Shown: positions 3,425 through 55,571 of the stretch, in pieces
Layout: the number at the start of each line of letters is the position of its first letter
Position numbering within the stretch: the stretch's first letter is position 1
Origin: Escherichia phage vB_EcoM_JL1
Sequence record: OR791690.1
Length of the DNA stretch: 55,571 nucleotides
Direction: 5' to 3' (one strand)
The notes under the pieces: generated by a model
What the model saw: the letters and a program-made list of their open reading frames with translations, nothing else
What the model was told of the DNA's origin: nothing
The model's database searches: none
Position numbers and translations under genes: made by a program

Positions 3425-4525
3425 TTAAAGCTCAAATCCGCCCAGAGCATTGGTGTCCACTTCGGAATCAATCTGCCCGACAAGGTACGAACTAATCTCC
3501 GTTTCTTGTGGAGCAACTTGTACAGCATCCGAATTCAACCATGCGTTAATCCAAGGAATCGGGTTAGTAGCACCTTTGAATGGAGCATCTAATCCAACTG
3601 CTTGCATACGAATATTCGTGATATATTCCACATATCCGCATAGAATTTGCTTGTTTAAGCCAATCATTGAGCCATCTTTGAACAAATAATCAGCCCAATC
3701 TTTCTCTTGTTGGGCCACATTTTCGAACATGAGTTGGCATTCTTGGCGGCATTCTTTAGCAATTTCGGCCATTTCTGGGTCATCAACACCACTTGCAAGA
3801 AGGTTCAGCATGTGTTGAGTTCCAGTCAAATGGAGTGCTTCATCACGAGCAATTAAGCGAATAATCTTGGCATTTCCTTCCATCAACTTGCGTTCAGCGA
3901 AGGCAAATGAACAAGCAAAACTGACATAAAAGCGGATTGCTTCTAGTGCATTAATGGACATGAGGCATAAATATAGCTTCTTCTTAAGCTCACGAATAGA
4001 AACCTCATCTTCATGCAGATGCCACATGGAAGTTAGGTGTTGAAGTTCGTCATAATATTGGGAGATGCCGATTGCACGCATTTTAATATGCTCATTCTCC
4101 ACAATTTCATCGAAAATGACACTCGGGTCTGTAACAATATTACGAATAATATGCGTGTAAGAACGGGAGTGAATTGTCTCTGAGAAGGACCAAGTTTCAA
4201 TCCAAGTTTCCAGCTCAGGAATGCTCACAATTGGCAGCAAAACTGTGGTTGGTCCACGTCCCTGAATGGAGTCAAGCAAGATTTGATAGCGCAAATTGCT
4301 GGTGAAGATGTGCTTCTCACATTCAGGCAGACCAGCATAGTCAATTCGGTCCTGGCTAACATCAACCTCTTCAGGTCGCCAAAAGAAAGATAACTGCTTT
4401 TCGATTAACTTCTCGAAGATGCTATACTTCTGTTGGTCATATCGAGCAACGTTAACGTTCTGACCAAAGAACATTGGCTCTAGTAGTTGGTTATTCTTGG
4501 TTTGTGAAAAGGTAGTGTAAGCCAT
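3425..4525 (-). CDS. nrdB: Ribonucleotide reductase class Ia small subunit (NrdB), host-like
   Basis: near-colinear with E. coli NrdB as I recall it ([11 protein letters not shown]..., [32 protein letters not shown]); no NrdA in the window. Confidence 0.9.
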
Positions 4526-9646: not shown

Positions 9647-10804
9647 TTATACCGTTACGTCAGTGTAAGTTATGTTGGCAGCAACACCACGAGCACGCTT
9701 ATCAATATCCAAATCAATGGTTGCTGTTCCAGTTGGGTTTGGAGCAATACCAATAAACAGGGAATCAATTTCAAGCGACTGTGTTGCAGCCATGATAGGA
9801 GCAAACATGTTAGACCATACTACACTCTGCCCTGGTTGCAGGGAGTTGAGATAGTTAACAGTTGCTTCGGTCAATTGACGAATAGCATCGTTAGAACTCA
9901 AGTTGGCATTTGCACGTCGACGGAACGTACCTTTGACATAAATGTCAGTGTAAGTTGGTCGGCTGAAATGAATATCGTGCGGATAGCCTTTTGAGTCTGC
10001 CACAGTGATTGTGATATTGCCGTGCGTAGGAACGCCACCAGTTTTGGCATTATAGATTCGACGTGCAATATCGTTATTGGTGCCGCCATCAACTACAACA
10101 AATACAGTGCCCGAAGGCTGATTGCCAATAGGAGAGCCGGTATCATTATCACGAACACGAATGTAATCAATATCGAGGTCAGCGAGTGAAGCATAGATTG
10201 CTTCGACTGTGGCTGTGCTACTAACTGCCGTGGTCCTTTCTCGACGCGCACGGAGTTGTGGGTCTGGTTCGTAGTTAACACCTGTTTCTCCAGCTGTTTC
10301 ATTGTTAACAGAAGTCCAACCAGCAACAGGAGTTACGATTTTGTTGATGGTCTTTGGTGCGATATAATACTCACCTGGCTCTTCTGCAATAACAGTTACG
10401 TCACCTGGGAGTGTTACGTCTGTGTCCAGTACGAAGCGCATGGTCCCATCTGTTACAACAGAGCCAGCAGGAACAACAGTTCCCACATCACCATTACATA
10501 GAACAGTTGCTTGTGAAGGCTTGTCAACATATCGGACAGTGTTTGTTAACTCACAAACGTTATCCAATCCAACACCAGATACAGCACCTGGACGGAATGC
10601 GTTGAACACCTGCTCAGCCTGTTCCCAGCACGAAGCTATTTCGTCTGCCATAATTCCAATGTATTGCCCATCAGGGGATTCCGGACTTATATCAAAGTTG
10701 GAACCAAATGCGGCAATAAATTTATTATTAAGGCTTGATACAACGTCGGCCACAGGCTTACGAACAAAGCCGTTCTCTGTTACGCCGTATTTGATTGTTG
10801 CCAT
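9647..10804 (-). CDS. Baseplate J-like protein (Mu gp47-like)
   Basis: 385 aa; size and position after W-like and spike genes. Confidence 0.45.
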   Translation of the reverse strand: MATIKYGVTENGFVRKPVADVVSSLNNKFIAAFGSNFDISPESPDGQYIGIMADEIASCWEQAEQVFNAFRPGAVSGVGLDNVCELTNTVRYVDKPSQATVLCNGDVGTVVPAGSVVTDGTMRFVLDTDVTLPGDVTVIAEEPGEYYIAPKTINKIVTPVAGWTSVNNETAGETGVNYEPDPQLRARRERTTAVSSTATVEAIYASLADLDIDYIRVRDNDTGSPIGNQPSGTVFVVVDGGTNNDIARRIYNAKTGGVPTHGNITITVADSKGYPHDIHFSRPTYTDIYVKGTFRRRANANLSSNDAIRQLTEATVNYLNSLQPGQSVVWSNMFAPIMAATQSLEIDSLFIGIAPNPTGTATIDLDIDKRARGVAANITYTDVTV

Positions 10805-11151: not shown

Positions 11152-11966
11152 TATTTCATCGGCCCAACATCGCCGCCTTCTGGGTTAGTGTGAGTGTGGC
11201 CATCAACCTTAATACCATTAAGAGTGAGGGAACCAGTTTGAACCATGTTACCATCCATCTTAAAGTTGCCAGTGAACGTTGCAGTGGAGCCATCTTTAGT
11301 CCCAGATACAGCCATGCCGCCCATCACTGTTAAGGATTTTGTAACGGTCGTGTCGCCATCCAATGTAATCTGCGGCGCTTTAACTGTAGCTTGCGACGTA
11401 ACTTCAACAAGAATCTCCGAATCTTTTGTGATTTGAATCTTCGCAGCGCCAGTAATGATTTCAATTAAACCGTCACCGTGCAGTGTCAGTCTTTGGCTTC
11501 TGTCTGCATTACGCAGTTCTGCTACTCCACCATTAAATCCTGGAATAACTTTGGTCAAAGGTTGAGTCCCGATAGTGCATACAGCAGCATTGTGGGAAAA
11601 CAATTGGCTAAATTCTGGAGCAGGTCGCCCATTTACTAAGCCAGCACTACTCTTGTTCTGTGAAAGCCAATGGTCTATTCCTCGCTGTGAGAAATGGACA
11701 TAGCATGGGGTTCCATCTGGAACTGGATGAGTTAAACTCCAGCCGCCACCCTGAATAAACTGAACAGGAACACCCTGCAACCGTTGTTTTGGATGCAAGG
11801 TATAGGCTTCGGCATAACCCACGAACAAGTTTTCGATTGCAAGCTGGACTTCGCAAGTCTGTGTTACGGCATCGAAATTGTAGATGTGTCCTGGATAACT
11901 TGTGTTAATGTCAGGAGCATTTTGGTTATTGTTATGACTAGCCACGTTCGAGTACACTCTCGTCAA
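11151..11966 (-). CDS. Baseplate central spike (P2 gpV / Mu gp45-like)
   Basis: C-terminal apex motif VDGHTHTNPEGGDVGP typical of spike tips. Confidence 0.55.
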   Translation of the reverse strand: MTRVYSNVASHNNNQNAPDINTSYPGHIYNFDAVTQTCEVQLAIENLFVGYAEAYTLHPKQRLQGVPVQFIQGGGWSLTHPVPDGTPCYVHFSQRGIDHWLSQNKSSAGLVNGRPAPEFSQLFSHNAAVCTIGTQPLTKVIPGFNGGVAELRNADRSQRLTLHGDGLIEIITGAAKIQITKDSEILVEVTSQATVKAPQITLDGDTTVTKSLTVMGGMAVSGTKDGSTATFTGNFKMDGNMVQTGSLTLNGIKVDGHTHTNPEGGDVGPMK

Positions 11967-12300
11967 TAATGAATAGGTAGAGTTGTCGGTAGCTTGTTAC
12001 TTCTTCGCCAGGGAATACTGTGTTGGCTGCATACATGTTTGGGAGCGGAGTCTTGTATTGCTTAAGAATATCAATACCGCATCGAATAGGGATTCCGAAT
12101 ATCTTATTCGTGGCTCCCCAAGCTAAGTCAAACATGTAGCAGTTTAAGGGTTCGTTTAAGTACAGTGCAGACATTTTAACTGTCACACCATTAAACTCAA
12201 ACGACACATCTTTCCTTATATTGTAAGGAACACTCTTAACGTATCCGGTGGGCAGAAGGTCAGCAATTTGCTTTAGAGCTTGTTGTTCCTGCTCAATCAT
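11938..12300 (-). CDS. Hypothetical tail/baseplate protein
   Basis: 120 aa minus-strand ORF in baseplate cluster. Confidence 0.4.
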   Translation of the reverse strand: MIEQEQQALKQIADLLPTGYVKSVPYNIRKDVSFEFNGVTVKMSALYLNEPLNCYMFDLAWGATNKIFGIPIRCGIDILKQYKTPLPNMYAANTVFPGEEVTSYRQLYLFIIDESVLERG

Positions 12301-13184
12301 AAGATACGCCCCTTGATAGAAGAAAGTGGAGAAGCAAGTTCACTCAACTTACCTTTCAAGTTGGATAACTGTTTGGTTGGAAGAGTGCCAAGAGCACCGA
12401 GTCCTGGAAGTGGAACACCACCAAGAACACCCATACCCAAACTTTGAGCAACCTTCGCAAATTCAGAATAGTCAGACATTGATTCCATTGCTTTACGAGC
12501 TTCGCTGGCAAGAGCATCTTCATCAACTGTCTGCAATTCTTCAAACAAGATTTCAACTGACAACATTGCAGAAGTCATCTTATCATGTTTGGTTTTGATT
12601 GAGGTTACTACACAATTCAAATAAGGTCCCAGAATGGTGGAGATGTATAACTTCTGCCCCGTAACACGGAAGCTGTTAAACAAATCGTAGGTAGACTGGA
12701 TTCGGTTGCTTGTTTCAAATGCAGAAGCAACGCCACCAGCAATTCCACCAAGGATGGGAATGATTGGGCTATTGAAGATTGCGCCAGAAGCAACAGATAA
12801 ACCTTGTACAGATGCAGACCACATGGAGGAGTTCTGCATGTTGACAGCAACAGCGGTCAGCTTAAGTACCCTGTTCTGGTTAATAACATGGTCACTAACC
12901 ATGAAGCCAGAACTAACAGGGAACTTGGTTACAGTTGTTTCAGACGCATGTTCTTCACTAACCATTGCATCAAATTTAAAAGAGTTAAAACTTTCGGTGG
13001 CAGCTTCACCAACAATAGGCAAGCTCTCAAGCGATTTCGCAAATCCACCAAACAGCCCAGATTCCTCTTCCTTCTGAGATGCAGGTCCATTGGACCACAT
13101 GACAATAGATGGATGATGCCCGTAGCTGAAATTCTTCAAGCCGGAGGACACACCACCAATGAGGTCGGTATCAAAGATAGACAT
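12297..13184 (-). CDS. Baseplate hub / tail protein (putative)
   Basis: 295 aa; position downstream of tape measure. Confidence 0.4.
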   Translation of the reverse strand: MSIFDTDLIGGVSSGLKNFSYGHHPSIVMWSNGPASQKEEESGLFGGFAKSLESLPIVGEAATESFNSFKFDAMVSEEHASETTVTKFPVSSGFMVSDHVINQNRVLKLTAVAVNMQNSSMWSASVQGLSVASGAIFNSPIIPILGGIAGGVASAFETSNRIQSTYDLFNSFRVTGQKLYISTILGPYLNCVVTSIKTKHDKMTSAMLSVEILFEELQTVDEDALASEARKAMESMSDYSEFAKVAQSLGMGVLGGVPLPGLGALGTLPTKQLSNLKGKLSELASPLSSIKGRIL

Positions 13185-29699: not shown

Positions 29700-30296
29700 T
29701 TATTTGTAACGTTCGGCCCCGTGAGTGTGGGCACCAATTTCAACAGTTCCTGGCACAGACACTTTCACACTGCCATCGCCAACAACAGAGATGCTGTGTG
29801 AGTGTGAACCGTCAGGAATATATGGCCTTTCATGCGGTCCAAGTTCCACACGACCAGTTGAGCCAAAGCCACCTTCGCCACGACCAGTTGCATTCAAGCG
29901 GTCAACTTCAACGAAATGGTGTTGAGTAGCTTTACTAACTTGCACCTGACAAATACGTTCACCTGGCTGAACCACAAAGGCTGTGTCCGAGTCGTTGTGC
30001 AGCTTAACCATAAGATTGCCACGATAATCGGAGTCCAGAATTCCTGTGCAATTTGCCAAGCGAATACCAGACTTAAAGCCATGACCAGAACGGCTATGAA
30101 CTTTGAGTTCGTATCCAACTGGAATCTCGAACTGGAGGCCAGTATCGAAAACAGCAGAGCAGCCGGGATTGATAACAACAGTGCTATCGGAGATAGTGCA
30201 AACGTCAGCAGCAGCAGCGCCAGCAGTAGCGTACACAGGTAATTTCGCATTAGGATGCACTCGCTTTACAGCAACAACTTGAGTCATACAAGACAT
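29700..30296 (-). CDS. dut: dUTP diphosphatase with ~45-aa C-terminal extension
   Basis: motifs SRSGHG, GILDSDYRG, GERICQ, GEGGFGSTG; extension carries SHSHS and GAHTHG. Confidence 0.8.
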   Translation of the reverse strand: MSCMTQVVAVKRVHPNAKLPVYATAGAAAADVCTISDSTVVINPGCSAVFDTGLQFEIPVGYELKVHSRSGHGFKSGIRLANCTGILDSDYRGNLMVKLHNDSDTAFVVQPGERICQVQVSKATQHHFVEVDRLNATGRGEGGFGSTGRVELGPHERPYIPDGSHSHSISVVGDGSVKVSVPGTVEIGAHTHGAERYK

Positions 30297-30298
30297 GA

Positions 30299-30928
30299 TT
30301 ATTTCTCTACTTGATAGGTTACGCGTTCAATCCAGTTGAACACTTTGAATACAGAATCACCCACTTTACCATCAACTAAATGTTCGTCCACTGTTACGCG
30401 GGTAGGTGTGTCTGGGAGGTTGATGTATCTGCGAGAATCGCCCGTGAAATCAAAACCATCACGATGCAAACGCACAATGAGGACAAAATCATAAGCAGAC
30501 TCAATGGCAACGACTTCATCACCAAAACCGCCATCGGGATAAATGACATTAATAATGCCACCCATACGCCCCGCGAGTTCTTTAACACGAGCAGCTTCAA
30601 CCTTACCGAAGTAGTCTTGTCCGTGGCGAGGCTTATACACATCTTCGCTAACGTGAATAAGAGCCTGACGAGGTGTTCTGCCACCAAGACCTGCAAGGGA
30701 GATAGAGTCTTTGAGGTCACGGTCCGAAGCGTAGTGAATAAACTTGTCCACATCAACTTGAAAGTGTTTGGCAGTATGCTCATACAGTGCATCCTTAAAC
30801 TGGTGTTTAATGAATTTGCGTTTGCCGAGGAAGTAAGGTTCCTCCGCAGCAACAATCTTATTTGCAATGGTGTCTTTGCCGCAGCCAGGAGGTCCATTGA
30901 GAATAACAGCTAATCGCTTAATCAAAAC
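30299..30928 (-). CDS. P-loop nucleotide kinase (dNMP kinase-like); start uncertain
   Basis: Walker A GPPGCGKDT; ORF open to 31027 but likely TTG/ATT start near 30928 after GAGGAA RBS. Confidence 0.5.
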   Translation of the reverse strand, partial: VLIKRLAVILNGPPGCGKDTIANKIVAAEEPYFLGKRKFIKHQFKDALYEHTAKHFQVDVDKFIHYASDRDLKDSISLAGLGGRTPRQALIHVSEDVYKPRHGQDYFGKVEAARVKELAGRMGGIINVIYPDGGFGDEVVAIESAYDFVLIVRLHRDGFDFTGDSRRYINLPDTPTRVTVDEHLVDGKVGDSVFKVFNWIERVTYQVEK

Positions 30929-31673
30929 TTTCCTCACTTTTGTCTGCACGTAAACGAACGAGTGACGGGAACCGGAACTTACCAGCTTCTGTCTTCTCAC
31001 GATATCGAACTTGCATAATCGAACCAATTAGCTCGTGGCGATGTTCCCACAACCACTTACGAATCAATGTGTTAGATTCTGGGACACCGTGGTCTGCCAG
31101 ACAATCTTTCACCATTGAGCCAGCACTGCCGTAGTTCGAAGAGATAGAACCACACATACCTTTAAGAGCACCAGTACCTTCTTTCATACCAGTAATCTTC
31201 ACATCGGCATATTTATATGGTACAATCTTCCACCATTTACCTTTTGCATCACGGACAATGATACCTTCATGACCAAGCGCCAAATATTTATCCATCAATG
31301 CCTTAAGGTTTTCATTGCTTGGGTCTTTGCACCAGCCGATGTACAAGCGTGGGTCAACAGCACCATCACTAAGCTCATACACATTGTCCTGGGTTAGAGG
31401 GACGCTTGGCGGGTCAATACGTCCGAGGATGCTAGAAGTCTCATTCCAACTATTACGGAATATCTCAGCATCTCTGAACTGTAAGTGGTCCAAATGAGGT
31501 AGGGGTTTGGAATTACGACTCCAGACACTACCTGATTTATTACGGATAGCTCGAATTCCGTCAATCTTGATGAAGAGTTCACAGCGCCCTTTGATACGGC
31601 AATCTGGGTCTTCCCAATCATGTGCGTGAGCCTTTGTGTAGCGTGTACCATCATCGAGGAGCTTAATAGACAT
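30918..31673 (-). CDS. ATP-dependent DNA ligase, minimal (251 aa)
   Basis: motif I KIDGIR, motif IV EGIIVRD, motif V WWKIVPYK, motif VI FRFPSLVRLRADK. Confidence 0.7.
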   Translation of the reverse strand: MSIKLLDDGTRYTKAHAHDWEDPDCRIKGRCELFIKIDGIRAIRNKSGSVWSRNSKPLPHLDHLQFRDAEIFRNSWNETSSILGRIDPPSVPLTQDNVYELSDGAVDPRLYIGWCKDPSNENLKALMDKYLALGHEGIIVRDAKGKWWKIVPYKYADVKITGMKEGTGALKGMCGSISSNYGSAGSMVKDCLADHGVPESNTLIRKWLWEHRHELIGSIMQVRYREKTEAGKFRFPSLVRLRADKSEESFD

Positions 31674-36372: not shown

Positions 36373-36437
36373 AGTATGGCTCCAATGGATTGGTGAGGAC
36401 TACGCTGGTGGGCGAACCATGCAGCGTAGTAGCTCTG

Positions 36438-38204
36438 TTATTGGTGTGGACCGTTCTTCTTAGTAAGCTGAACAATCTCTTTGGTTTCGAACAGCGAGTC
36501 ATCCCAAGAACGTTGAATGATTCGACCAGATTCGGTGTCGTAATATGTCTTGAAGCCTTCTGTTTTACCACTCTTACGAGCCTTAATGGAACGAATGATA
36601 GAACAGTTTGGGTCAACTGCCTGACTATTACGCTCAAAGCCGAACATGCCATGGGAATATTTAGCAGCAGCACGGGAGCCAGTAAAGTCTGACTTCTTAA
36701 TACGTCCACCATCCTCATGAGGTCGTTGACCTTTTGCCACAGGGTTAAGGTGCGACAGGATGTTTACATGGAACTGGTATTGGTCTGCCAGCTTAGTAAT
36801 ATCTGCATACAGCTTACCTAAGAAGTCGTTCTTCTCTGAGGCAGAAATCCCTTCCGATAAGTAGGTTAAGTTATCAAGGACAAACATATCAATGTCTGGT
36901 CCAATCTGACGAAGAATCGTCTTTAACCCATCCCAGGTTTCATAAGGGTCTTCTCCAGCTTGCTTGCGGTCCCAAATCTCCATGTTACGAAGCATCTTCG
37001 CAGCAGTTTGACGGAACTTAGCTTCATCATATCGAGGGTCTTCACGAGTAAACGCAGGTTCCCAATATGGCAAGTTGTCATTAAGGCCAGCCATTCGGCG
37101 CAGTGTTTCTGTAGGAGTTTCCTCCATGTATGCAGTAAACACTCCCCAATCATGCTTGGTAATGTTGTGATGCACAATCTGACGGGACAGCGTAGTTTTA
37201 CCACCACCTTCTGCACCACCGATTGTAATAACTTCGGCTCGACGTTGACCAAACATTAAGTCGGTTAACTTGGGCCAAGGATAGTCCACACCCTGTTCAA
37301 CTTCGTCATCAAGCTCTTCCATAAGAAGTTCTTTGTTGACAAGTGCTGTAGGCAGAGGACGAGCAGCACGGAACACAACAGCAGATTGAGTAGCTTTGAG
37401 CAAGCCACGCTTCAAACAATCGTTGGCATCGTTAGCTGGAAGTGTTGCAATCATTGCACCAGGCAATAATCGACACGCTTCTTTTGCAGCTTTACGTCCA
37501 GGTTCGTCATCATCAAATACGATAACAATCTGCTCCCAACGTTGCTTAATTTCTTCTGCAACTGGTGACAAACATTTGTGTACGGAATCACTCCCGTCAC
37601 TCAAACTAATTACAGCAAAATCCAAATCTTCATATGCACCACCACGGTTCATAGTTTTGAGGATTTGACGCAATGCGATACAGTCTTCTTCACCTTCTGT
37701 GATGAACAGTGTCTTACCGCCAATTGCTTTTGCAGCCATCCAGTTGTAAGGGTCGTTACCCTGGGTGTCGCCAACTGACCACATAACTTTCTTGTTCAGA
37801 AGTTTAATCTTCCATCGAACAAGTTTACCATTTTTGGTGTAGCCATGTGCCAGAGCATTTGGAGTCTTCCCATCATACTCTGAATACAGAAGTCGAACAC
37901 CAGCAGCTTTCCAAAATTCTGGCTCAATGCTGCGATGGGTTAAATCAAACGGAGGACAAGCAGTGATTTCATCAACTTCTTCCTGAATTTCTTCTGGAGT
38001 TTTGACTTTAATCTCTGGAATGTTCTCCGGATTATTGCCATAAGGATTTGGTACTAGAACGCCACATGCAAAACAGTAACCAGAAAAATTCTTATTACCA
38101 GCTTCATCGACATTCAACCAAACCTGTAAAGACTTGCCAGATGTGGATTTACAGTCTGGTACATCGTGCTTAATCTTAGCCACACATTGCTTAACGTTCA
38201 TCAT
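36438..38204 (-). CDS. Primase-helicase (T7 gp4-like)
   Basis: N-terminal Cys4 zinc finger, TOPRIM EGEEDCIAL, Walker A GGAEGGGKTT. Confidence 0.8.
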   Translation of the reverse strand: MMNVKQCVAKIKHDVPDCKSTSGKSLQVWLNVDEAGNKNFSGYCFACGVLVPNPYGNNPENIPEIKVKTPEEIQEEVDEITACPPFDLTHRSIEPEFWKAAGVRLLYSEYDGKTPNALAHGYTKNGKLVRWKIKLLNKKVMWSVGDTQGNDPYNWMAAKAIGGKTLFITEGEEDCIALRQILKTMNRGGAYEDLDFAVISLSDGSDSVHKCLSPVAEEIKQRWEQIVIVFDDDEPGRKAAKEACRLLPGAMIATLPANDANDCLKRGLLKATQSAVVFRAARPLPTALVNKELLMEELDDEVEQGVDYPWPKLTDLMFGQRRAEVITIGGAEGGGKTTLSRQIVHHNITKHDWGVFTAYMEETPTETLRRMAGLNDNLPYWEPAFTREDPRYDEAKFRQTAAKMLRNMEIWDRKQAGEDPYETWDGLKTILRQIGPDIDMFVLDNLTYLSEGISASEKNDFLGKLYADITKLADQYQFHVNILSHLNPVAKGQRPHEDGGRIKKSDFTGSRAAAKYSHGMFGFERNSQAVDPNCSIIRSIKARKSGKTEGFKTYYDTESGRIIQRSWDDSLFETKEIVQLTKKNGPHQ

Positions 38205-38855
38205 TTATTCCTGTTTAATGAGTGCCTCCCAGCAAACAGGAAACAACTCTGACATAATTTTATTGACTTCTTCTGCAAACAAACGTGCCTCATATTGGGC
38301 GTGCTCTGTAGAGCGTTGCTTGTACATATTAGCCCAGCCCAGTAAAGAGCCAGTCCAAATCCATGTAGTCATCATGGATTGTGGCAACACCATTCGGGCT
38401 TGCTCTGGAGCAATCCCCAAACCAATTAACGTTTCATATTCTGCAATGCAAGCCTTGTTGTGGCTTTCCATGCGATAATGAATATCGTCAGCAAAATCCT
38501 GTGGCAATGGTTGTGCAGTCTGAGTCATCAACTTTTCAGGACGACCAAACACCACATCAGGTACAAAGCATTCAATTTCGATTGCTTCGCCATCTTTGTA
38601 ACGACGGCTAACTTCGTTCCAACGAAAGCCCACCTGGTGCTTACCCAGTTGGCGTGCAACAAAGATTGGTGCAGTGCAGCGTAATGTTACATACGCATGG
38701 GCAAAAGGTGTATTGTGCTTATGCCTTGCGAGAAATTCAATGAGCTTTTCGTCGCGCAATGTCATCTCGTGGGACTCTGCACCATAAGAAGCTCGTGCAG
38801 CATTAACAGTTGTAAGGTCGCTGCCCATGTGGTCAACGAGTGTTGCAGTAATCAT
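38205..38855 (-). CDS. thyX: ThyX-like flavin-dependent thymidylate synthase homologue with altered RHR motif
   Basis: MGSDLTTVNAARASY, APIFVARQL, RSTEHAQYE match ThyX as I recall it; canonical RHR replaced by KHQ. Confidence 0.6.
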   Translation of the reverse strand: MITATLVDHMGSDLTTVNAARASYGAESHEMTLRDEKLIEFLARHKHNTPFAHAYVTLRCTAPIFVARQLGKHQVGFRWNEVSRRYKDGEAIEIECFVPDVVFGRPEKLMTQTAQPLPQDFADDIHYRMESHNKACIAEYETLIGLGIAPEQARMVLPQSMMTTWIWTGSLLGWANMYKQRSTEHAQYEARLFAEEVNKIMSELFPVCWEALIKQE

Positions 38856-38911
38856 TTGCTCTCCGGTTCATATGGTGGGAGATTAATTAGCTCCGCACCA
38901 TGATAATGGTA

Positions 38912-39142: not shown

Positions 39143-39644
39143 GTTTCTCTCCAGTTAAAATTTAAGTAAGTGTCCTGACGTGAACTGTTACAAAACACTT
39201 ATTAAATTTGATTCGAACCGCCCAAGTGAATCAGCCTTGTTTATGGGGACCATCGGGGAAAAGTATAAACCCGCTTAATGCTCGCATCATGTTTGAACAT
39301 TAAGAACCCTCGACTTGCATATTTCATGTGTATAGGAACATAGTCTGGATTTTGAATCCAGCTAACTTCGGGATGAGGAGTAACCCAAACGAAAGCCTGA
39401 ACTTTCTTTCTGCACAACACAATCAGCGCAACTAAGCCGTATCGCTACGGTATGCCAGACGCTCGCATGAGCCTTTTGAACAGAGGCATAACTGTTGGAG
39501 GTAAAGTGGCGGATTCGGCGAACGTTAGTTCACAATTACACAGTCGGCCTCGGATGCTTCATCCCTATCCCATCGTGCAGGTTTCATTAACTCTACGAAT
39601 CCATTGAATTTGGTGGCCGATACGTTGGCCAGACGCTGTGATAT

Positions 39645-39845
39645 TTAACAAGGGTCGCTGTCAGGTTCTGTCAACTTCTTGCGAAGGAATGCATCCCCTG
39701 CGTTATACAGAAATGCGAAGTAAAGTTGCTTTGCCTTATGTCGGCTACAACCCAAGGCTACCTGAATTTCTTGATACTGATATGTACGCACCTCATTATT
39801 AATGATTGCGTTGCGAATGATTGCACGAATGCTGATTTTGTCCAT
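39645..39845 (-). CDS. Hypothetical protein
   Basis: 66 aa minus-strand ORF. Confidence 0.35.
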   Translation of the reverse strand: MDKISIRAIIRNAIINNEVRTYQYQEIQVALGCSRHKAKQLYFAFLYNAGDAFLRKKLTEPDSDPC

Positions 39846-40228
39846 AGAAGACTACCTTATACAGTTGAGGTTGCGGCCTTTACGCGGCCAACGTGCCATT
39901 AATGCTGGCAAGACAGAGCTAACGTTCTCAAGCACTTTTGTCTAGGTCTGTTCCCGGCCACTGTTCTAGGAAGTGACTACCTGAACTTTCTCGCGTTCAA
40001 TGCGAGGCAGCAATTTTAATTGTTATGCCCAGAGCAACTTGCAGGTTTGTTTGAGTTGGAGTCCTGCTTCCAAACGCATGGGCTTACACCATCATCGCAA
40101 CAAGTTGCTAGAGTCTCGTTATTTAAAGTCGCGCACTCCCTCGACTTTTGGGTAGTTATAGACGTCCGTCTTGGCTGTCGTCACCTTGGTCAGTCTTTTA
40201 CACCACCAACTAGCTAGGCCATGTTCAC

Positions 40229-40598: not shown

Positions 40599-40779
40599 AA
40601 ATCACCTTAGATGGCGCACGCACCACTTGAGCAGTCGTTATCGCCCTCACCAGGAACGATTGCTTCTTCGTCCTGCTTCTTCTTAAGTTCTTCAATTGCT
40701 TCTTCGGCAGCACCGAAGTCTAAATTATCAAGTGCATCAAAATCCATAAGGACTCCAGTATTGCGGTTATTAAAGTGGG

Positions 40780-40872
40780 TGGACGAGGTTGGATTCGAAC
40801 CAACGACACATCTGCCTAACAGATTGCTCTACCTGACTAAGCTCTGGAGCAGACCTTCTGAGCTACTCGTCC
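40780..40872 (-). tRNA. tRNA gene with ~20-nt insertion; anticodon probably UAG (Leu) by manual fold
   Basis: acceptor stem GGACGAG/CTCGTCC, T-arm GTTGG-TTCGAAT-CCAAC, D-arm GCTT-AGTCAGGTA-GAGC, anticodon loop GUUAGGC; extra TAGCTCAGAAGGTCTGCTCCAGA between acceptor strand and D-arm. Confidence 0.6.
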
Positions 40873-41860
40873 AAAGAATAAGAGGGTTTTGATAACGCAG
40901 GTTTTCCCGAACTGCGAGGCTTGTAGAATCCGTGAGCCGCCTACTGTGTTTTGACATAACGTGGGATTGATGGTCCCGACTCACTTCATCTCAGGTACGA
41001 GGCACTACTTTGCGAGTGCAAGCAGGTGTTGAACCCAAGTACCAACAGGCAACCTGATTTAATCTACCTTTGTAGATACCATCGGTTATGAGCAGTTTAT
41101 TTCCATACTCAGGGCAACTCACTTTAGGGTGAATTTAGGTTACGCAGTGCAGCTTCGAAGTCGCTGCCACAGGCTTGAGATTCCTGTGTGGAGGGAAATC
41201 CAGAGGAGCACTTCCCCAAGGAGTTACGTTTCATATTGGCATAGCTTCTCACACTAAGCCAATTGAAGACATTCCAGTGTGCTCGTCCGTCCTCTAGAAA
41301 TATCCAACTGCATAATTAAGTTTGTACTCTGTCACATCCCCACGCGCACTGAGGGACTTAAGCCTGCATTGCATCGCAGAATACAAATTAATTATTGCTC
41401 CGATTTATTAATCACATCTCGAAGCCACAATGCGCCAAATTTGGTTACGTGGGATTGGAAGACCACGGAGAGGACTTAAATTTAATTAAGCCGCAACTCG
41501 CATTTCAGAATCATTTGCATTTATTTTAAATGAATAAAACAGTCGCAATAACTCCAGGCAGTTTAGGCCCGTCGTAAGACTCAGAAAACTACTTCAATTT
41601 GTACACAACAAATTTCCCAACATTGCCTTCCGTCGAAGGCTCATGCACTGGTGTTTGAATTATGCACAAATTGAAATAACTTCAATGAACACTCTTGTCT
41701 GGGCCATGAGATTGGGCATCGGCCTACCTCCCAACTCTAATCACAAGAATGCTCATTGAAGCCCACTCTTCCTTTCAGAATGGGTTCAAGGCAGCACCGG
41801 AAATATTCCAGTGCATGCCAGATCGATTTAGCTTAGTCTCTCAAGTTTGCCATCGGCAAC

Positions 41861-52520: not shown

Positions 52521-52992
52521 AATATTTGTTGCTCAAAATCGGGGCGGCAAACGATATTAAATTCGATGCTTTGTCCGACTTCTTCTCTTCTTTCGAATTC
52601 TGATTGAAAGAAAGAAGCATGTCCAAAAGTTCCAATATTACAAAGTTATCTCCCGGCTTGTGGGTGGGCCTTTATAATAGGAGATGGAGCAATATTGTTG
52701 CAATTGAACATGCTTTAGTTGAAGAACAGTTTCGAATGGTAATCCTACTTCACACATGGTTGTTGGAACTTTGTCCGGCCAAAGACAGGGAGTTCAATGA
52801 TTGCCACATCATTACAACACTGTATGTTTAGTTGACATGCTGAAATGTTTCTAGAATGATTTCAACATGACATGCGGAATACTTCTCCGTATTCTGTTAC
52901 TTCACATCCAACTAATGTTACAGGTGGCTACAATATTGAAGCCAGCTCTAAGATTAATTGAAACAAGAAAAGGGAGCCGAAGCTCCCAAATA

Positions 52993-53193
52993 TCAGAACG
53001 GTATCTCTGTATCGAAATAACCAGAATTGTGCAAATATGCATGCAGTAATACATGCGACTCTTGTTTATATTCTGCTAACAACTCTAAGAAGTCTTTAGT
53101 CTCCTCCACTGTAGGACGAGATAAGTTGCTCATGTCACAGGTGTGATGAGGGTTGAAACAGTTTTCGATTTGATTGATTTGCATGGTATTCAT
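52993..53193 (-). CDS. Copy of 417..617 (small protein ending DTEIPF)
   Basis: sequence identity with 417..617. Confidence 0.5.
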   Translation of the reverse strand: MNTMQINQIENCFNPHHTCDMSNLSRPTVEETKDFLELLAEYKQESHVLLHAYLHNSGYFDTEIPF

Positions 53194-53241
53194 TATAAGT
53201 CTCCAAGTTTGTGGTCATCCTTGACCAATTAGTGTTACTGA

Positions 53242-55356
53242 TTATTGACAGAAGTAGTAAGCGTGTTCGCTCATCAGAAGCTCTTCAGTTACGATGTTCT
53301 CATGATACATCTTGATGCCACCAAGTTGCTTAGACAGATTCTCGAATTGATTGTTGGTTACAAAGATTTCAACATATGCTGCACGAATAACTTCCATCAT
53401 ACGTGGAGCATCTGCCAAACAGCAACGGAAACAATCATGGATTGAAGTGAAGCCACGAAGACCAGCTTCTTTAGCTTTAACTGCAACAGTACGAGCAACA
53501 AGTGCATCAATGCCCTGAATGTAGTTAACAACGAAAGTACGCTTGAATTCTTCTTTAGTTGGATTGGATTCACGAATGGTCCAAGGCTTATTCTCCTGAA
53601 TCTGACCAAAGATAACACGAGTTTGGGAGTCAACACGAATGCTGAATGCCTCACAGATTTCACGAGATGGGAAGCAAGGCTTCATTACAACCTGACCATC
53701 AGTGTGACGATATGTGATGTACTCTTTACCAAGTTCAACACAACGGTTGTATGCAGCATCAGCAGCTTTCTCAATGAACATGTTAATCTTAGCACCCAAT
53801 GCGTTATGGATTGCTTCCACACACAGTTCAGCAAATGCCTCAGCTTTCTCCATAGGAATCTGGAGTGCTTCTGTCATGTAGCTGATGAAGTCAGAAGAAC
53901 CAGTCAATGCAGCTTTACCACCACCGTATTGGATAGCCATGTACGGAGTTTTGATAAACTTACGACCAGCTTTCGGATTCAAGAATTCATCCATGATTTC
54001 AGGAGATGGTTTCATTGAAGACTTGTCCAGCAGCTTCAACAGTTCACGAAGACTCAACTGGTATGGGTCAGATGCTTTAGTCTCAGAATCAACCAGACCT
54101 GTTGCACGAGCCATTTCCATATTACCAGCAATGAATGCCAGATATTGAGTACCAGAACATTTAGCATCTAAGCCAAAGCCTACACGAGAATCACATTCAC
54201 CTGTAGTCTCGAACTTGAACCAATCCAGAGCCAGACGAACATAAGTGAATGGCTTGGAAGGACGTTCAGCTTTAGGCATGTTCATCATGCGAGCAAGTGA
54301 ACCAGCTGGATTCTGAGCAACATAAGTTAAACGCTTAGCACTGCACCATTCACCACCAGAAATATCTTCCAGCTCTGCCATAAACATGTTGTATGCAATG
54401 GTAGTAGAACCATCTTCGTTAAACTTCTTAACGATGTTCTCAACATTGTGAGAATACAAGCAACGAGCAAAGTCAGATGATTGTGGGTTAGGACCAGCAC
54501 ATGCTACATGATACAGACGACCACGGTTATCAGCAAAGTAGTCAGAATACAGTGTGTCCTGATTCATCATTGCTACAGCATTGTTCCAAACATGGAGTTC
54601 AGTCTGGATTGCTTCTGGCATCTGCAAGCCACCATAGGTACGTTGTTCAAGCATGGACTGAATGATGCGAACCATCTCAGTCTCCACATGGTACTCAGTA
54701 TCTTGCAGGAATTCGATTGCAGCTTTCAGAGTTTTGGATGGCTTAACTTTGCCACCTTTAACGAAAGGCTTGCGACGAGATTCAGATGTAACACGCTCAG
54801 TGAATGGCACTGCGGTATCTTTGGTTGTAACCAGCTCAACCCATGTGTCAGTTTGTTGGAACGACTTATCTTCGTTCATGGTGATGAAGCCAAAGTGCTT
54901 AGCCAGGCCAATGAGGTTGATAGCTGGGTCAACATAGTGCATTGCTTTCAAATCATTGTTGTAACGGTTGGCATCAGCAATTGAAGCAGAAGCCAGCTCA
55001 ACCATTGCAATTGCAGGAACAACATCATCACGAGTGAATGAGGTCATCATCTTAAAGATTGCAAGAGCAGCAATAGCACAGGTCTGAGGTTGCATGTAGT
55101 TCTGTTTCTCTTTGGCACGATATACCAGAGCAGTGATAGCAGGGACAACGGATTTGATAGTTTGAGTTGAGATAGTTGCCATTTTGCGAGTCTCCAATTT
55201 AGTTTCGGTTTTAGTTTCGGATTGTGTAGCGGAGGTGATTTCATCTACCATCTGGTTGCAACGGTCCATCGTATCGAGCACGTCTTTCCAACCGTGGCCT
55301 TCTTCTTTTAAGCGAGCACCATCAGCAGCCAGTGTACGATATTCTTCATTAGTCAT
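53242..55356 (-). CDS. Copy of T7-like single-subunit RNA polymerase gene
   Basis: identical to 666..2780. Confidence 0.85.
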   Translation of the reverse strand: MTNEEYRTLAADGARLKEEGHGWKDVLDTMDRCNQMVDEITSATQSETKTETKLETRKMATISTQTIKSVVPAITALVYRAKEKQNYMQPQTCAIAALAIFKMMTSFTRDDVVPAIAMVELASASIADANRYNNDLKAMHYVDPAINLIGLAKHFGFITMNEDKSFQQTDTWVELVTTKDTAVPFTERVTSESRRKPFVKGGKVKPSKTLKAAIEFLQDTEYHVETEMVRIIQSMLEQRTYGGLQMPEAIQTELHVWNNAVAMMNQDTLYSDYFADNRGRLYHVACAGPNPQSSDFARCLYSHNVENIVKKFNEDGSTTIAYNMFMAELEDISGGEWCSAKRLTYVAQNPAGSLARMMNMPKAERPSKPFTYVRLALDWFKFETTGECDSRVGFGLDAKCSGTQYLAFIAGNMEMARATGLVDSETKASDPYQLSLRELLKLLDKSSMKPSPEIMDEFLNPKAGRKFIKTPYMAIQYGGGKAALTGSSDFISYMTEALQIPMEKAEAFAELCVEAIHNALGAKINMFIEKAADAAYNRCVELGKEYITYRHTDGQVVMKPCFPSREICEAFSIRVDSQTRVIFGQIQENKPWTIRESNPTKEEFKRTFVVNYIQGIDALVARTVAVKAKEAGLRGFTSIHDCFRCCLADAPRMMEVIRAAYVEIFVTNNQFENLSKQLGGIKMYHENIVTEELLMSEHAYYFCQ

Positions 55357-55571
55357 GATAAAGTCTCCAATTGATTATGATTTAACTGAAACGGATTAGA
55401 CTTGCGTAGCCTATTCATAATCACAACCAACTAATGGTGAGGTGAGCACACTACAACAGCGTACTCTGATTGCCTTTGACCTTGACTTATAAGCGAAGCG
55501 CCTAACTTGGTGTTGTTTGAAAGCCGATAGGCTGTAGGAAAAAGTTGGAGTAGGGACCGTATTTAAGTCCG

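Follow-up and report, generated by a model that had tools for sequence, protein, structure and literature searches.

The K-H-Q signature of a coliphage ThyX is a hallmark conserved across a large, predominantly viral subfamily

The ThyX signature R-H-R-X7-S derives from early, mostly cellular sequences. Biochemical characterisation is available for mycobacteriophage L5 gp48, and the Dictyostelium ThyX is experimentally active. PBCV-1 ThyX has been characterised biochemically as well (PMC3498832, PMC5954106). The signature goes back to Myllykallio 2002, as quoted in PMC2826268, and reviews describe RHR as highly conserved, with R78 and R80 of the T. maritima enzyme as direct ligands (PMC6514825, PMC3498832). 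The motif binds the AMP phosphate, the ribityl and the FMN phosphate of the flavin (PMC6514825), and R78 and R80 are said to hydrogen-bond dUMP (PMC3498832). The T. maritima ligands R78, H79, R80, T55 and R165 correspond to R95, H96, R97, S71 and R190 of the Mtb enzyme (PMC6514825). Here, we show using family models, structure prediction, residue conservation and selection analysis that thyX of Escherichia phage vB_EcoM_JL1, analysed in a window of 55,571 nucleotides, carries K-H-Q in place of R-H-R, and that KHQ is a conserved trait of a large ThyX subfamily with mostly viral members, and most likely no mark of a broken or re-purposed enzyme.

The phage resembles phiEcoM-GJ1, and the gene is its ordinary gene for thymidylate synthase. 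It starts with ATG and encodes a full-length ThyX of 216 amino acids (Table 1). Thy1 (PF02511) is its sole Pfam match and runs end to end through the protein, covering profile positions 1-191 of 191 (E 1.6e-42; 145.9 bits, cutoff 24.8), and the protein does not belong to the ThyA-type family (Thymidylat_synt). The thyX equivalog model TIGR02170 of NCBIfam scores 131 bits (cutoff 87.9), PHROG 85 matches at 2e-71, and T. maritima ThyX aligns over residues 5-214 (E 6e-27). Relatives in phiEcoM-GJ1, Bp10, EcoM1 and other phages are 98-99.5% identical and annotated as thymidylate synthase. An AlphaFold2 monomer model (pLDDT 95.1, pTM 0.90) superposes on T. maritima ThyX with a TM-score of 0.82 and 33-34% identity over about 212 alignment columns in Foldseek, where each of the best 50 PDB matches listed is a chain of T. 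maritima ThyX (TM 0.78-0.82, best E 1e-18). The original prediction of a ThyX-like protein is borne out by the Pfam, TIGR02170 and T. maritima matches, and the protein contains the peptides on which that prediction had drawn: MGSDLTTVNAARASY (residues 10-24), APIFVARQL (62-70) and RSTEHAQYE (181-189).

Table 1. Positions of thyX, its diagnostic codons and functionally related genes in the window
Feature	Position	Strand	Assignment	Basis
thyX CDS	38205..38855	-	flavin-dependent thymidylate synthase family	ORF list and family models
Shine-Dalgarno GGAGAG	38859..38864	-	3 nt upstream of the thyX ATG	sequence read
K72-H73-Q74 (AAG CAC CAG)	38634..38642	-	counterpart of canonical R-H-R	T. maritima ThyX alignments
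Spacer V75-G76-F77-R78-W79-N80-E81-V82	38610..38633	-	8 residues, one over canonical; G76 conserved	
S83-R84-R85-Y86 codons	38598..38609	-	T. maritima S88-G89-R90-Y91; R84 is the subfamily-specific extra arginine	
R154 codon	38394..38396	-	T. maritima R147 (dUMP phosphate ligand)	invariant, 64/64
R181 codon	38313..38315	-	T. maritima R174 (uracil-activating arginine)	invariant, 64/64
Primase/helicase gene	36438..38204	-	same transcription unit as thyX	Pfam Toprim and DnaB_C/AAA_25
dNMP-kinase-like ORF	30299..31027	-	putative dTMP to dTDP step	PHROG 139 'deoxynucleoside monophosphate kinase', 1e-38
dUTPase	29700..30296	-	supplies dUMP, the ThyX substrate	Pfam dUTPase, 1.7e-22

What stands in the place of RHR? 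Alignment pairs K72-H73-Q74 with T. maritima R78-H79-R80, just where the replacement had been placed at the outset, and the literature agrees with the original view of the replaced arginines as phosphate contacts, since it gives them as ligands of the FAD phosphates and ribityl and of dUMP (PMC6514825, PMC3498832). The seven-residue spacing assumed alongside does not hold: eight residues lead to the serine (KHQ-VGFRWNEV-S83, against RHR-IASYNEL-S88 in T. maritima), and in K72-H73-Q74-X8-S83 only the His and the Ser of the literal signature are retained. Reading KHQVGFRWNEVSRRY, the window protein shows the KH-x/S-R-R-Y pattern of the subfamily, with a spacer one residue longer than the canonical one. 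All PDB ThyX matches to it have the shorter, canonical spacing, which is likewise implied by the coordinate spans of the PolB and 6J61 alignments. The arginine within the spacer (R78 of the window protein, in VGFRWNE) was considered as a shifted compensating arginine and discarded, as most close homologues have Ser there and the position varies across the subfamily.

Conservation was counted in an alignment of 64 subfamily sequences, with numbering mapped to T. maritima ThyX (given in brackets). The entire dUMP-binding and catalytic set of that enzyme (Q75, E86, S88, R90, Y91, E144, R147, R174 and H53) is present in the window protein, and each of these positions is either invariant or conserved to at least 95% in the alignment. 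Invariant across the alignment are Q69 (Q75), H73 (H79), S83 (S88), R85 (R90), Y86 (Y91), E151 (E144), R154 (R147) and R181 (R174), and at least 90% conservation is found at H47 (H53), E81 (E86), K72 and R84. In the SRRY stretch, S83, R85 and Y86 stand in 64/64 sequences and R84 in 60/64 (about 94%); the four exceptions have M or L, which shows that R84 is not strictly required. An altered substrate specificity, raised in the original prediction, is not indicated, the dUMP-contacting and catalytic equivalents being kept, seven of them invariant and the E86 equivalent retained in 62/64.

The motif is not peculiar to this phage. In the best 150 cluster representatives at 50% identity, the motif was readable in 124, with KHQ in 68, KHK in 21, KHT in 8 and RHR in a single one, the remainder being other variants; 117 of these motifs end in SRRY and 7 in S-M/L-R-Y. 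Typical forms are KHQ, KHK or KHT followed by xG-x3-(N/S)E-x-SRRY, and the pattern (K/R)-H-x-x-G-x3-(N/S)-E-x-S-R-R-Y fits 120/120 matches of a subfamily-profile search and most of the 150 representatives. Named members are Roseophage SIO1 (KHK), coliphage Bas87 (KHQ), the Rheinheimera Barba phages (KHK) and marine T4-like phages. A strict degenerate DNA pattern, which gives a lower bound, found KHQxGxxx(N/S)ExSRRY at at least 53 loci in genome contigs. The subfamily is also chromosomal in bacteria, in housekeeping contexts: KHQ-type thyX adjoins 2-oxoacid dehydrogenase E1b/E2 in Chloroflexota, citrate synthase and a pyrF-pyrE fusion in Spirochaetia, and IspH in Nitrospinota. A complete Spirochaetia chromosome (OZ251568.1) and SAR202, Nitrospinota and Poribacteria genomes are among the carriers. 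In some metagenomic KHQ-type homologues, inteins are inserted within the motif spacer; inteins typically home into essential conserved sites. Non-canonical ThyX motifs were reportedly described before, in a paper that, by its title, is probably the first account of them. In the literature we found no assay, biochemical study or solved structure of a KHQ/SRRY subfamily member. The Spirochaetia protein has two relatives at 66-71% identity; of its next nearest relatives, many lie on phage-sized contigs of about 43 kb.

Among close homologues, down to 68% identity, KHQ is invariant in 119/120, and its codons vary synonymously (AAG/AAA, CAC/CAT, CAG/CAA) with the residues fixed. Gene-wide dN/dS is 0.08-0.12, a range that leaves out one locus (L072; dN/dS 0.72, pN 0.66) which looks like a codon-register artefact. 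Such ratios, and the purely synonymous change at the K, H and Q codons, contradict the loss of activity that had been suggested for the variant motif. Together with the homologue count and the cluster survey, they also rule out KHQ as a private mutation or the gene as a pseudogene.

The genome of 52.6 kb holds a single thyX, between a small ORF of unknown function and the primase/helicase gene, the ATG of which follows directly on the TAA stop of thyX. Primase/helicase and DNA polymerase genes adjoin thyX, and the phage also encodes an RNR small subunit. For the dNMP-kinase-like ORF, the Pfam search gave no match above the cutoff. No ThyA-family match was found in 22 other ORFs scanned against Pfam. 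The Shine-Dalgarno of thyX recurs in phage ST32, where ORF38 is listed with the same CGGAGAGcaaATG (PMC6266442). A scan for sigma-70 promoters and terminators around thyX returned fewer sites than were seen in shuffled controls, a result that carries no information since this phage encodes an RNA polymerase of its own.

We consider it likely that the gene product is a working flavin-dependent thymidylate synthase of a distinct, predominantly viral subfamily with a variant signature, which on the aligned sequences reads as (K/R)-H-(Q/K/T/V)-x-G-x3-(N/S)-E-x-S-R-R-Y in place of R-H-R-x7-S-x-R-Y. We infer that the protein is catalytically active, most likely as a dUMP-to-dTMP synthase. Following the characterised ThyX enzymes, the protein would form a homotetramer, with active sites to which three subunits contribute, and bind the flavin cofactor; N5 of the reduced flavin would take the methylene from CH2H4folate and hand it to C5 of dUMP. 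S83, R85 and R154 would hold the nucleotide in place, R181 would activate it, and the product would then be reduced to dTMP. K72 and H73 could retain the interactions that R78 and H79 make with the flavin phosphate and ribityl and with dUMP, a hydrogen bond from Q74 might take the place of the R80 salt bridge, and the extra R84 with the longer, Gly-containing spacer may bring positive charge back to the surroundings of the dUMP or FAD phosphates. That R84 contacts a phosphate is plausible because Q89 of PBCV-1 ThyX, at the G89/R84 position, can enter the dUMP phosphate pocket (PMC3498832). Arginines conserved at shifted positions, which would have spoken against the original prediction, are found in part: Lys72 keeps the charge, and the subfamily-specific R84 lies at a shifted position beside the dUMP-phosphate pocket. 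Within the replication module, dUTPase would provide dUMP, ThyX would convert it to dTMP and the dNMP-kinase-like protein would carry it on to dTDP, a route that would raise the dTTP supply for a genome of 44% G+C.

How might the flavin be anchored when canonical ligands are replaced? Among the FAD phosphate and ribityl ligands, the window protein keeps H73 and T49 and has K72 for R78, Q74 for R80 and L172 for R165, a pattern common to the subfamily. The T49 position is T or S in 54/64 sequences, and the L172 position is Y in most Chaseviridae. Throughout the subfamily no basic residue stands at the R80 and R165 positions, whereas most members have acquired Arg where T. maritima has N169 and G89. 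Since the FAD-phosphate ligands R80 and R165 are missing, flavin anchoring in the window ThyX may, by this comparison, differ from the canonical one. A more far-reaching version, in which the chemistry is the same and the flavin is held or reduced otherwise, with the ADP part of FAD bound less tightly or in another arrangement, with FMN or an exchangeable flavin in use, or with a protein as electron donor, we regard as quite improbable for this protein. It would fit the changes just described, the lack of the N169-position Arg in Chaseviridae as well, the description of RHR as a binder of the flavin phosphates and ribityl (PMC6514825), and the 2Fe-2S ferredoxin gene that directly precedes and overlaps KHQ-type thyX in marine T4-like phages. 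However, K72, H73, T49 and the adenine-pocket region remain, no ferredoxin gene adjoins thyX in the window phage, and the argument is a comparative one throughout. For the KH-x/SRRY subfamily at large, the idea that flavin is held or reduced unlike in all characterised ThyX (a looser FAD pyrophosphate, FMN or an exchangeable flavin, a ferredoxin-type donor) seems rather unlikely; it is entertained because R80 and R165 are systematically absent and arginines occur elsewhere (R84 and, in the majority of members, R176).

Could the protein instead be a neofunctionalised ThyX paralogue? Such an enzyme would act on another pyrimidine nucleotide (UMP, dCMP) or yield another product (e.g. a hydroxymethyl or other C5 adduct), and might supply phage DNA with a modified base; the precedent would be PolB, the ThyX paralogue from polyoxin biosynthesis. 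We hold this to be very improbable, although two residues said to hydrogen-bond dUMP (R78 and R80) are altered, several ORFs near thyX have no known function, and the phage has its own dNMP-kinase-like protein, as phages with non-canonical nucleotides usually need. Phage dNMP kinases are typical of, but not specific to, phages with modified nucleotides. PDB 4P5A, which we take to be PolB, a Streptomyces UMP/dUMP C5-methylase, is matched at 1.4e-17, more weakly than T. maritima ThyX. ThyX paralogues of relaxed specificity do exist, and PolB, with its ThyX fold, illustrates that the scaffold can shift its substrate range (PMC5954106). PolB belongs to an antibiotic gene cluster, however, whereas the window thyX lies in a phage replication module and is neither part of a secondary-metabolite cluster nor a second copy beside a housekeeping thyX. 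Further, the remaining dUMP-contacting and catalytic positions are invariant, and bacteria carry thyX of the same motif type as single chromosomal genes in housekeeping contexts, in one case next to genes for pyrimidine biosynthesis. In the 32 ORFs scanned, no ThyA, ThyA-type hydroxymethylase, glycosyl-, amino-acyl- or phospho-transferase or other recognisable base-modification enzyme was detected, and the accessible papers on these phages name the gene product thymidylate synthase and are silent on DNA modification. An inactive relic, or a pseudo-enzyme with a non-catalytic role in nucleotide binding or regulation, is extremely improbable despite the unmatched RHR-X7-S and the two missing FAD-phosphate arginines, given a dN/dS of about 0.1, the fixation of K, H and Q despite synonymous codon variation, the conservation of R181, S83, R85, Y86, E151 and H47 over hundreds of divergent clusters, the targeting of the motif by inteins and the chromosomal copies in bacteria.

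For this phage, an active ThyX with a variant signature is of little consequence, as it plays a conventional part in the replication module. The broader message is one of caution for motif-based annotation: RHR-X7-S fails for a very large, mainly viral ThyX subfamily, with marine T4-like phages, Roseophage SIO1 and several coliphage groups among its carriers. Strong purifying selection acts on this subfamily all the same, and some bacteria use it as a chromosomal gene. If flavin handling were indeed altered, the RHR rule and the inhibitor and structure models of ThyX would not be transferable to the most abundant viral ThyX.

Finally, the window protein can be placed among the known ThyX systems. 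T. maritima ThyX (TM0449; PDB 1O26, 1KQ4 and others) has the same fold and length class, and its H79 is conserved together with Q75, E86, S88, R90, Y91, E144, R147, R174 and H53; the differences are RHR to KHQ, a spacer of 8 instead of 7 residues, G89 to R84 and R165 to L172. Mycobacteriophage L5 gp48, cyanophage S-PM2, Thermus phage phiYS40 and PBCV-1 A674R are members of the same family with a presumed viral dTMP role, but share only about 25-31% identity with the window protein and have R-H-R, a spacer of 7 residues and S-(G/Q)-R-Y. Much closer, at 40-50% identity, are the ThyX proteins of SIO1, Bas87, Barba and marine T4-like phages, which share K-H-(Q/K)...(N/S)E-x-S-R-R-Y and are likewise encoded in phage replication or nucleotide modules. 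Even here there is variation: SIO1 and the Barba phages have Lys at the third motif position (KHK), keeping a positive charge where the window protein has Q74, SIO1 lacks the Gly and has a 7-residue spacer in contrast to the Gly and 8 residues of the window protein, and in marine myophages, unlike in the window phage, a ferredoxin gene adjoins thyX.

The window protein is a full-length member of the ThyX family, as judged by curated models and by its fold. It covers the Pfam Thy1 profile entirely (1.6e-42), scores 131 bits against the NCBIfam thyX equivalog TIGR02170 (cutoff 87.9), and matches PHROG 85 (2e-71) and, over residues 5-214, Thermotoga maritima ThyX (6e-27). An AlphaFold2 monomer model, built from a 64-sequence alignment, reached a pLDDT of 95.1 and a pTM of 0.90, and its best PDB matches, among the matches listed, are all T. 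maritima ThyX chains (TM 0.82). The original prediction of a ThyX-like protein with K-H-Q at the signature is confirmed, since the three codons lie at 38642..38634 and every flanking peptide that it quoted is present; HMMER alignments place K72-H73-Q74 opposite R78-H79-R80 of T. maritima. The substitution thus stands, but the predicted 7-residue spacing to the serine does not: KHQ-VGFRWNEV-S83-R84-R85-Y86 aligns with RHR-IA-SYNEL-S88-G89-R90-Y91, with one extra residue in the window protein and a spacer of eight. Because the protein lacks both the literal 2002 signature RHR-X7-S and two canonical flavin-phosphate arginines, we place it in a ThyX subfamily with a non-canonical motif.

Of the 120 database proteins nearest to the window protein (68-99% identity), 119 carry KHQ and one KHS, and in Chaseviridae-like viral contigs the codons switch between AAG and AAA, CAC and CAT, and CAG and CAA while the residues stay constant. 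We searched 1.84 billion cluster representatives exhaustively with HMMER and obtained 7057 ThyX-like clusters, of which the best 150 (40-59% identity) entered a motif census. The motif was readable in 124: KHQ in 68, KHK in 21, KHT in 8, RHT in 7, KHV and RHQ in 5 each, RHR in 1 and other variants in 9. In the best representatives xG-x3-(N/S)E-x and then S-R-R-Y come after it, the ending being SRRY in 117/124 and S-M/L-R-Y in 7/124; a profile search added 120 further members, every one with K-H-(Q/T/I) and SRRY. Named phages include Roseophage SIO1 and the Rheinheimera Barba phages (KHK...SRRY) and coliphage Bas87 (KHQ...SRRY), while mycobacteriophage L5 gp48, cyanophage S-PM2 and Thermus phage phiYS40 have RHR and S-(G/Q)-R-Y. 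KHQ is therefore no lesion but the hallmark of a large subfamily. This leaves without support the altered specificity or loss of activity that had been read into it, and loss of activity is moreover contradicted by selection, with a gene-wide dN/dS of 0.08-0.12 (relatives at dS 0.08-3.5) and synonymous changes at the K, H and Q codons. The ThyX proteins of Bacillus phage Blastoid (L060) and Streptomyces phage Moab (L061) retain SRRY and have longer, more divergent motif regions, ARQHWKYVVGSDHTMDAWNEGSRRY and ARQWWKYAVASTHLEDQNGWNESSRRY, in which even the His is hard to place unambiguously.

How might such a motif be accommodated? In canonical enzymes, RHR makes hydrogen bonds to three parts of FAD, namely the AMP phosphate, the ribityl and the FMN phosphate. 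The first Arg of the motif additionally touches the isoalloxazine ring and dUMP, and the flavin-phosphate site is completed by a Ser/Thr and a second Arg (S71 and R190 in Mtb; PMC6514825). R78, R80, S88 and R90 are listed as direct dUMP ligands in T. maritima (PMC3498832). The window protein keeps Q75 (as Q69), H79 (H73), E86 (E81), S88 (S83), R90 (R85), Y91 (Y86), E144 (E151), R147 (R154), R174 (R181), H53 (H47) and T55 (T49), and replaces R78 by K72, R80 by Q74, G89 by R84 and R165 by L172. Across the 64-sequence subfamily alignment, the equivalents of Q75, S88, R90, Y91, E144, R147 and R174 are invariant and that of E86 is retained in 62; with these dUMP-binding and catalytic equivalents conserved, the nucleotide pocket is intact in the subfamily. 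Position 72 is K in 59/64 and R in 5/64, position 74 is Q, T, K or V (R in only 2/64), position 172 is never basic (0/64), position 84 is R in 60/64, and the N169-equivalent position is Arg in 42/64 and S or N in Chaseviridae. The difference thus lies in which basic residues surround the phosphates of flavin and dUMP, two arginines being lost and one or two gained elsewhere. K72 and H73 would retain the contacts of R78 and H79, a hydrogen bond at Q74 would replace the salt bridge, and positive charge would be re-supplied by R84 together with the one-residue-longer, Gly-containing spacer. A phosphate contact by R84 is plausible, because Q89 of PBCV-1 ThyX, at the same position, can swing into the dUMP-phosphate pocket (PMC3498832). 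R84 is not indispensable, since M or L replaces it in 4/64 aligned sequences and 7/124 readable representative motifs.

The window gene most probably encodes an active flavin-dependent dUMP-to-dTMP synthase that raises dTTP supply during replication. Inteins within the motif and bacterial chromosomal copies are independent signs that the subfamily is a working enzyme. Essential, conserved sites are typical homing targets of inteins, and several metagenomic members carry one exactly inside the motif (KHQxGF|C...HN|SWNE), which marks it as essential; a second site lies beside the His equivalent to H47 (HEHM|C...GN|TPF; intein-bearing homologues P0131, P0205, P0215, P0247, P0268; P0176, P0259). 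Five other homologues (P0125, P0161, P0193, P0229, P0246) have a ~130-aa insert in the variable loop after KQGS, with zinc-ribbon and HNH-type sequences as judged by eye.

The exact DNA pattern KHQxGxxx(N/S)ExSRRY occurs at 53 loci among 185,579 species genomes, 47 of them with a complete motif-bearing ORF. Many look viral: the Nitrosopelagicus locus is a viral-looking contig of small ORFs, and neighbours of the Marinobacter locus resemble, by eye only, a T7-type RNA polymerase and ribonucleotide reductase. Several are plainly chromosomal, with thyX flanked by 2-oxoacid dehydrogenase E1b/E2 on one side and an MFS transporter on the other in Chloroflexota, adjoined by IspH and AcrB in Nitrospinota, and also in Poribacteria. 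On a complete Spirochaetia chromosome, citrate synthase and a short-chain dehydrogenase (SDR) precede thyX, with a pyrF-pyrE fusion alongside; a second spirochaete shares the SDR-thyX synteny, and in both thyX is fused in an operon with the SDR. Capture from a phage is suggested, as the nearest relatives other than two proteins at 66-71% identity (~55-66% identity) lie in many cases on phage-sized (~43 kb) contigs.

The same chemistry with altered flavin anchoring or another electron donor is unlikely, although a 2Fe-2S ferredoxin gene lies directly upstream of KHQ-type thyX in marine T4-like phages (L064-L066; gp45 clamp, gp44 clamp loader, RegA, family-B polymerase) and may encode a dedicated electron donor. 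The gene after thyX in these contigs is Mom-like. Neofunctionalisation towards a different substrate or product, as in PolB, is quite improbable; a scan of 32 ORFs turned up neither a ThyA-type hydroxymethylase nor any glycosyl-, aminoacyl- or phosphotransferase of the thymidine-hypermodification kind. An inactive relic, contradicted by the selection data, is hardly credible.

The window is a complete Carltongylesvirus genome (Chaseviridae, phiEcoM-GJ1-like coliphage) with a direct terminal repeat, because the 2,995 bp of bases 1-2995 recur with 100% identity at 52577-55571; unique sequence amounts to 52,576 bp. Over a 15-kb stretch surrounding thyX, identity with phages Bp7, DE15, ST32 and phiEcoM-GJ1 is 95-97%. 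ThyX heads a replication block continuing with primase/helicase, family-A DNA polymerase, 5'-3' exonuclease, HNH endonuclease, ligase, a dNMP-kinase-like ORF and dUTPase. Lying between ligase and dUTPase, the kinase-like ORF is a homologue of unannotated phiEcoM-GJ1 gp43 and had no Pfam family above cutoff; together, dUTPase, ThyX and dNMP kinase make up a coherent pathway that leads from dUTP to dTDP. The ribonucleotide reductase (RNR) small subunit may be an orphan NrdB, since no large-subunit gene was found among the ORFs scanned.

Coordinates of thyX, its neighbours and the compared loci
Feature	Location	Strand	Remarks
thyX ORF, 216 codons	38205..38855	minus	
Ribosome-binding site GGAGAG	3 nt 5' of thyX ATG		
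Primase/helicase gene	36438..38204		ATG immediately after TAA stop of thyX
dNMP-kinase-like ORF, 242 aa	30299..31027	minus	PHROG 139 'deoxynucleoside monophosphate kinase', 1e-38
RNR small subunit	3425..4525	minus	Pfam Ribonuc_red_sm, 2.5e-48; adjoins lysis genes
T7-like RNA polymerase gene	53242..55356		Inside terminal repeat
Ferredoxin-thyX pair, L064-L066	Fer2 7663/7681-8001; ThyX 8001-8630		Genes overlap
Spirochaete KHQ-type thyX, L004	3001-3657		Beside pyrF-pyrE fusion
Spirochaete KHQ-type thyX, L053	5976-6632		

In phiEcoM-GJ1 (L001), HNH endonuclease genes gp34 and gp36 lie on either side of the primase/helicase gene (9672-10115, 11940-12425); the window has no counterparts (36395..38205 compared) and thyX abuts the primase, which looks like presence or absence of mobile homing endonucleases. 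Window 40673..40971 is 90% identical to a phiEcoM-GJ1 feature annotated 'tRNA-Arg, may contain an intron', yet ARAGORN found no tRNA there and Rfam gave no hit of any kind. Few convincing ORFs occupy 39143..40228, the ~1.1 kb lying 5' of the small ORF preceding thyX.

The gene itself is not new, as many GenBank records already annotate it: the window protein shares 99.5% identity with a 'putative thymidylate synthase' from phage Bp10 and 98% with phiEcoM-GJ1 gp33, and related phages are given simply as having a thymidylate synthase (PMC6266442; PMC7552041). We found no enzymology or structure of any KHQ-type ThyX in the literature, and the modest interest lies in how the ligands of flavin and phosphate differ at the level of this uncharacterised subfamily. 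The Mtb, H. pylori and PBCV-1 enzymes are canonical (PMC6514825; PMC3498832), and match coordinate spans imply the shorter, 7-residue spacing for PolB (4P5A) and 6J61. T. maritima ThyX likewise combines the canonical motif with a 7-residue spacer in the PDB alignment, whereas the window protein combines KHQ with a spacer of eight.
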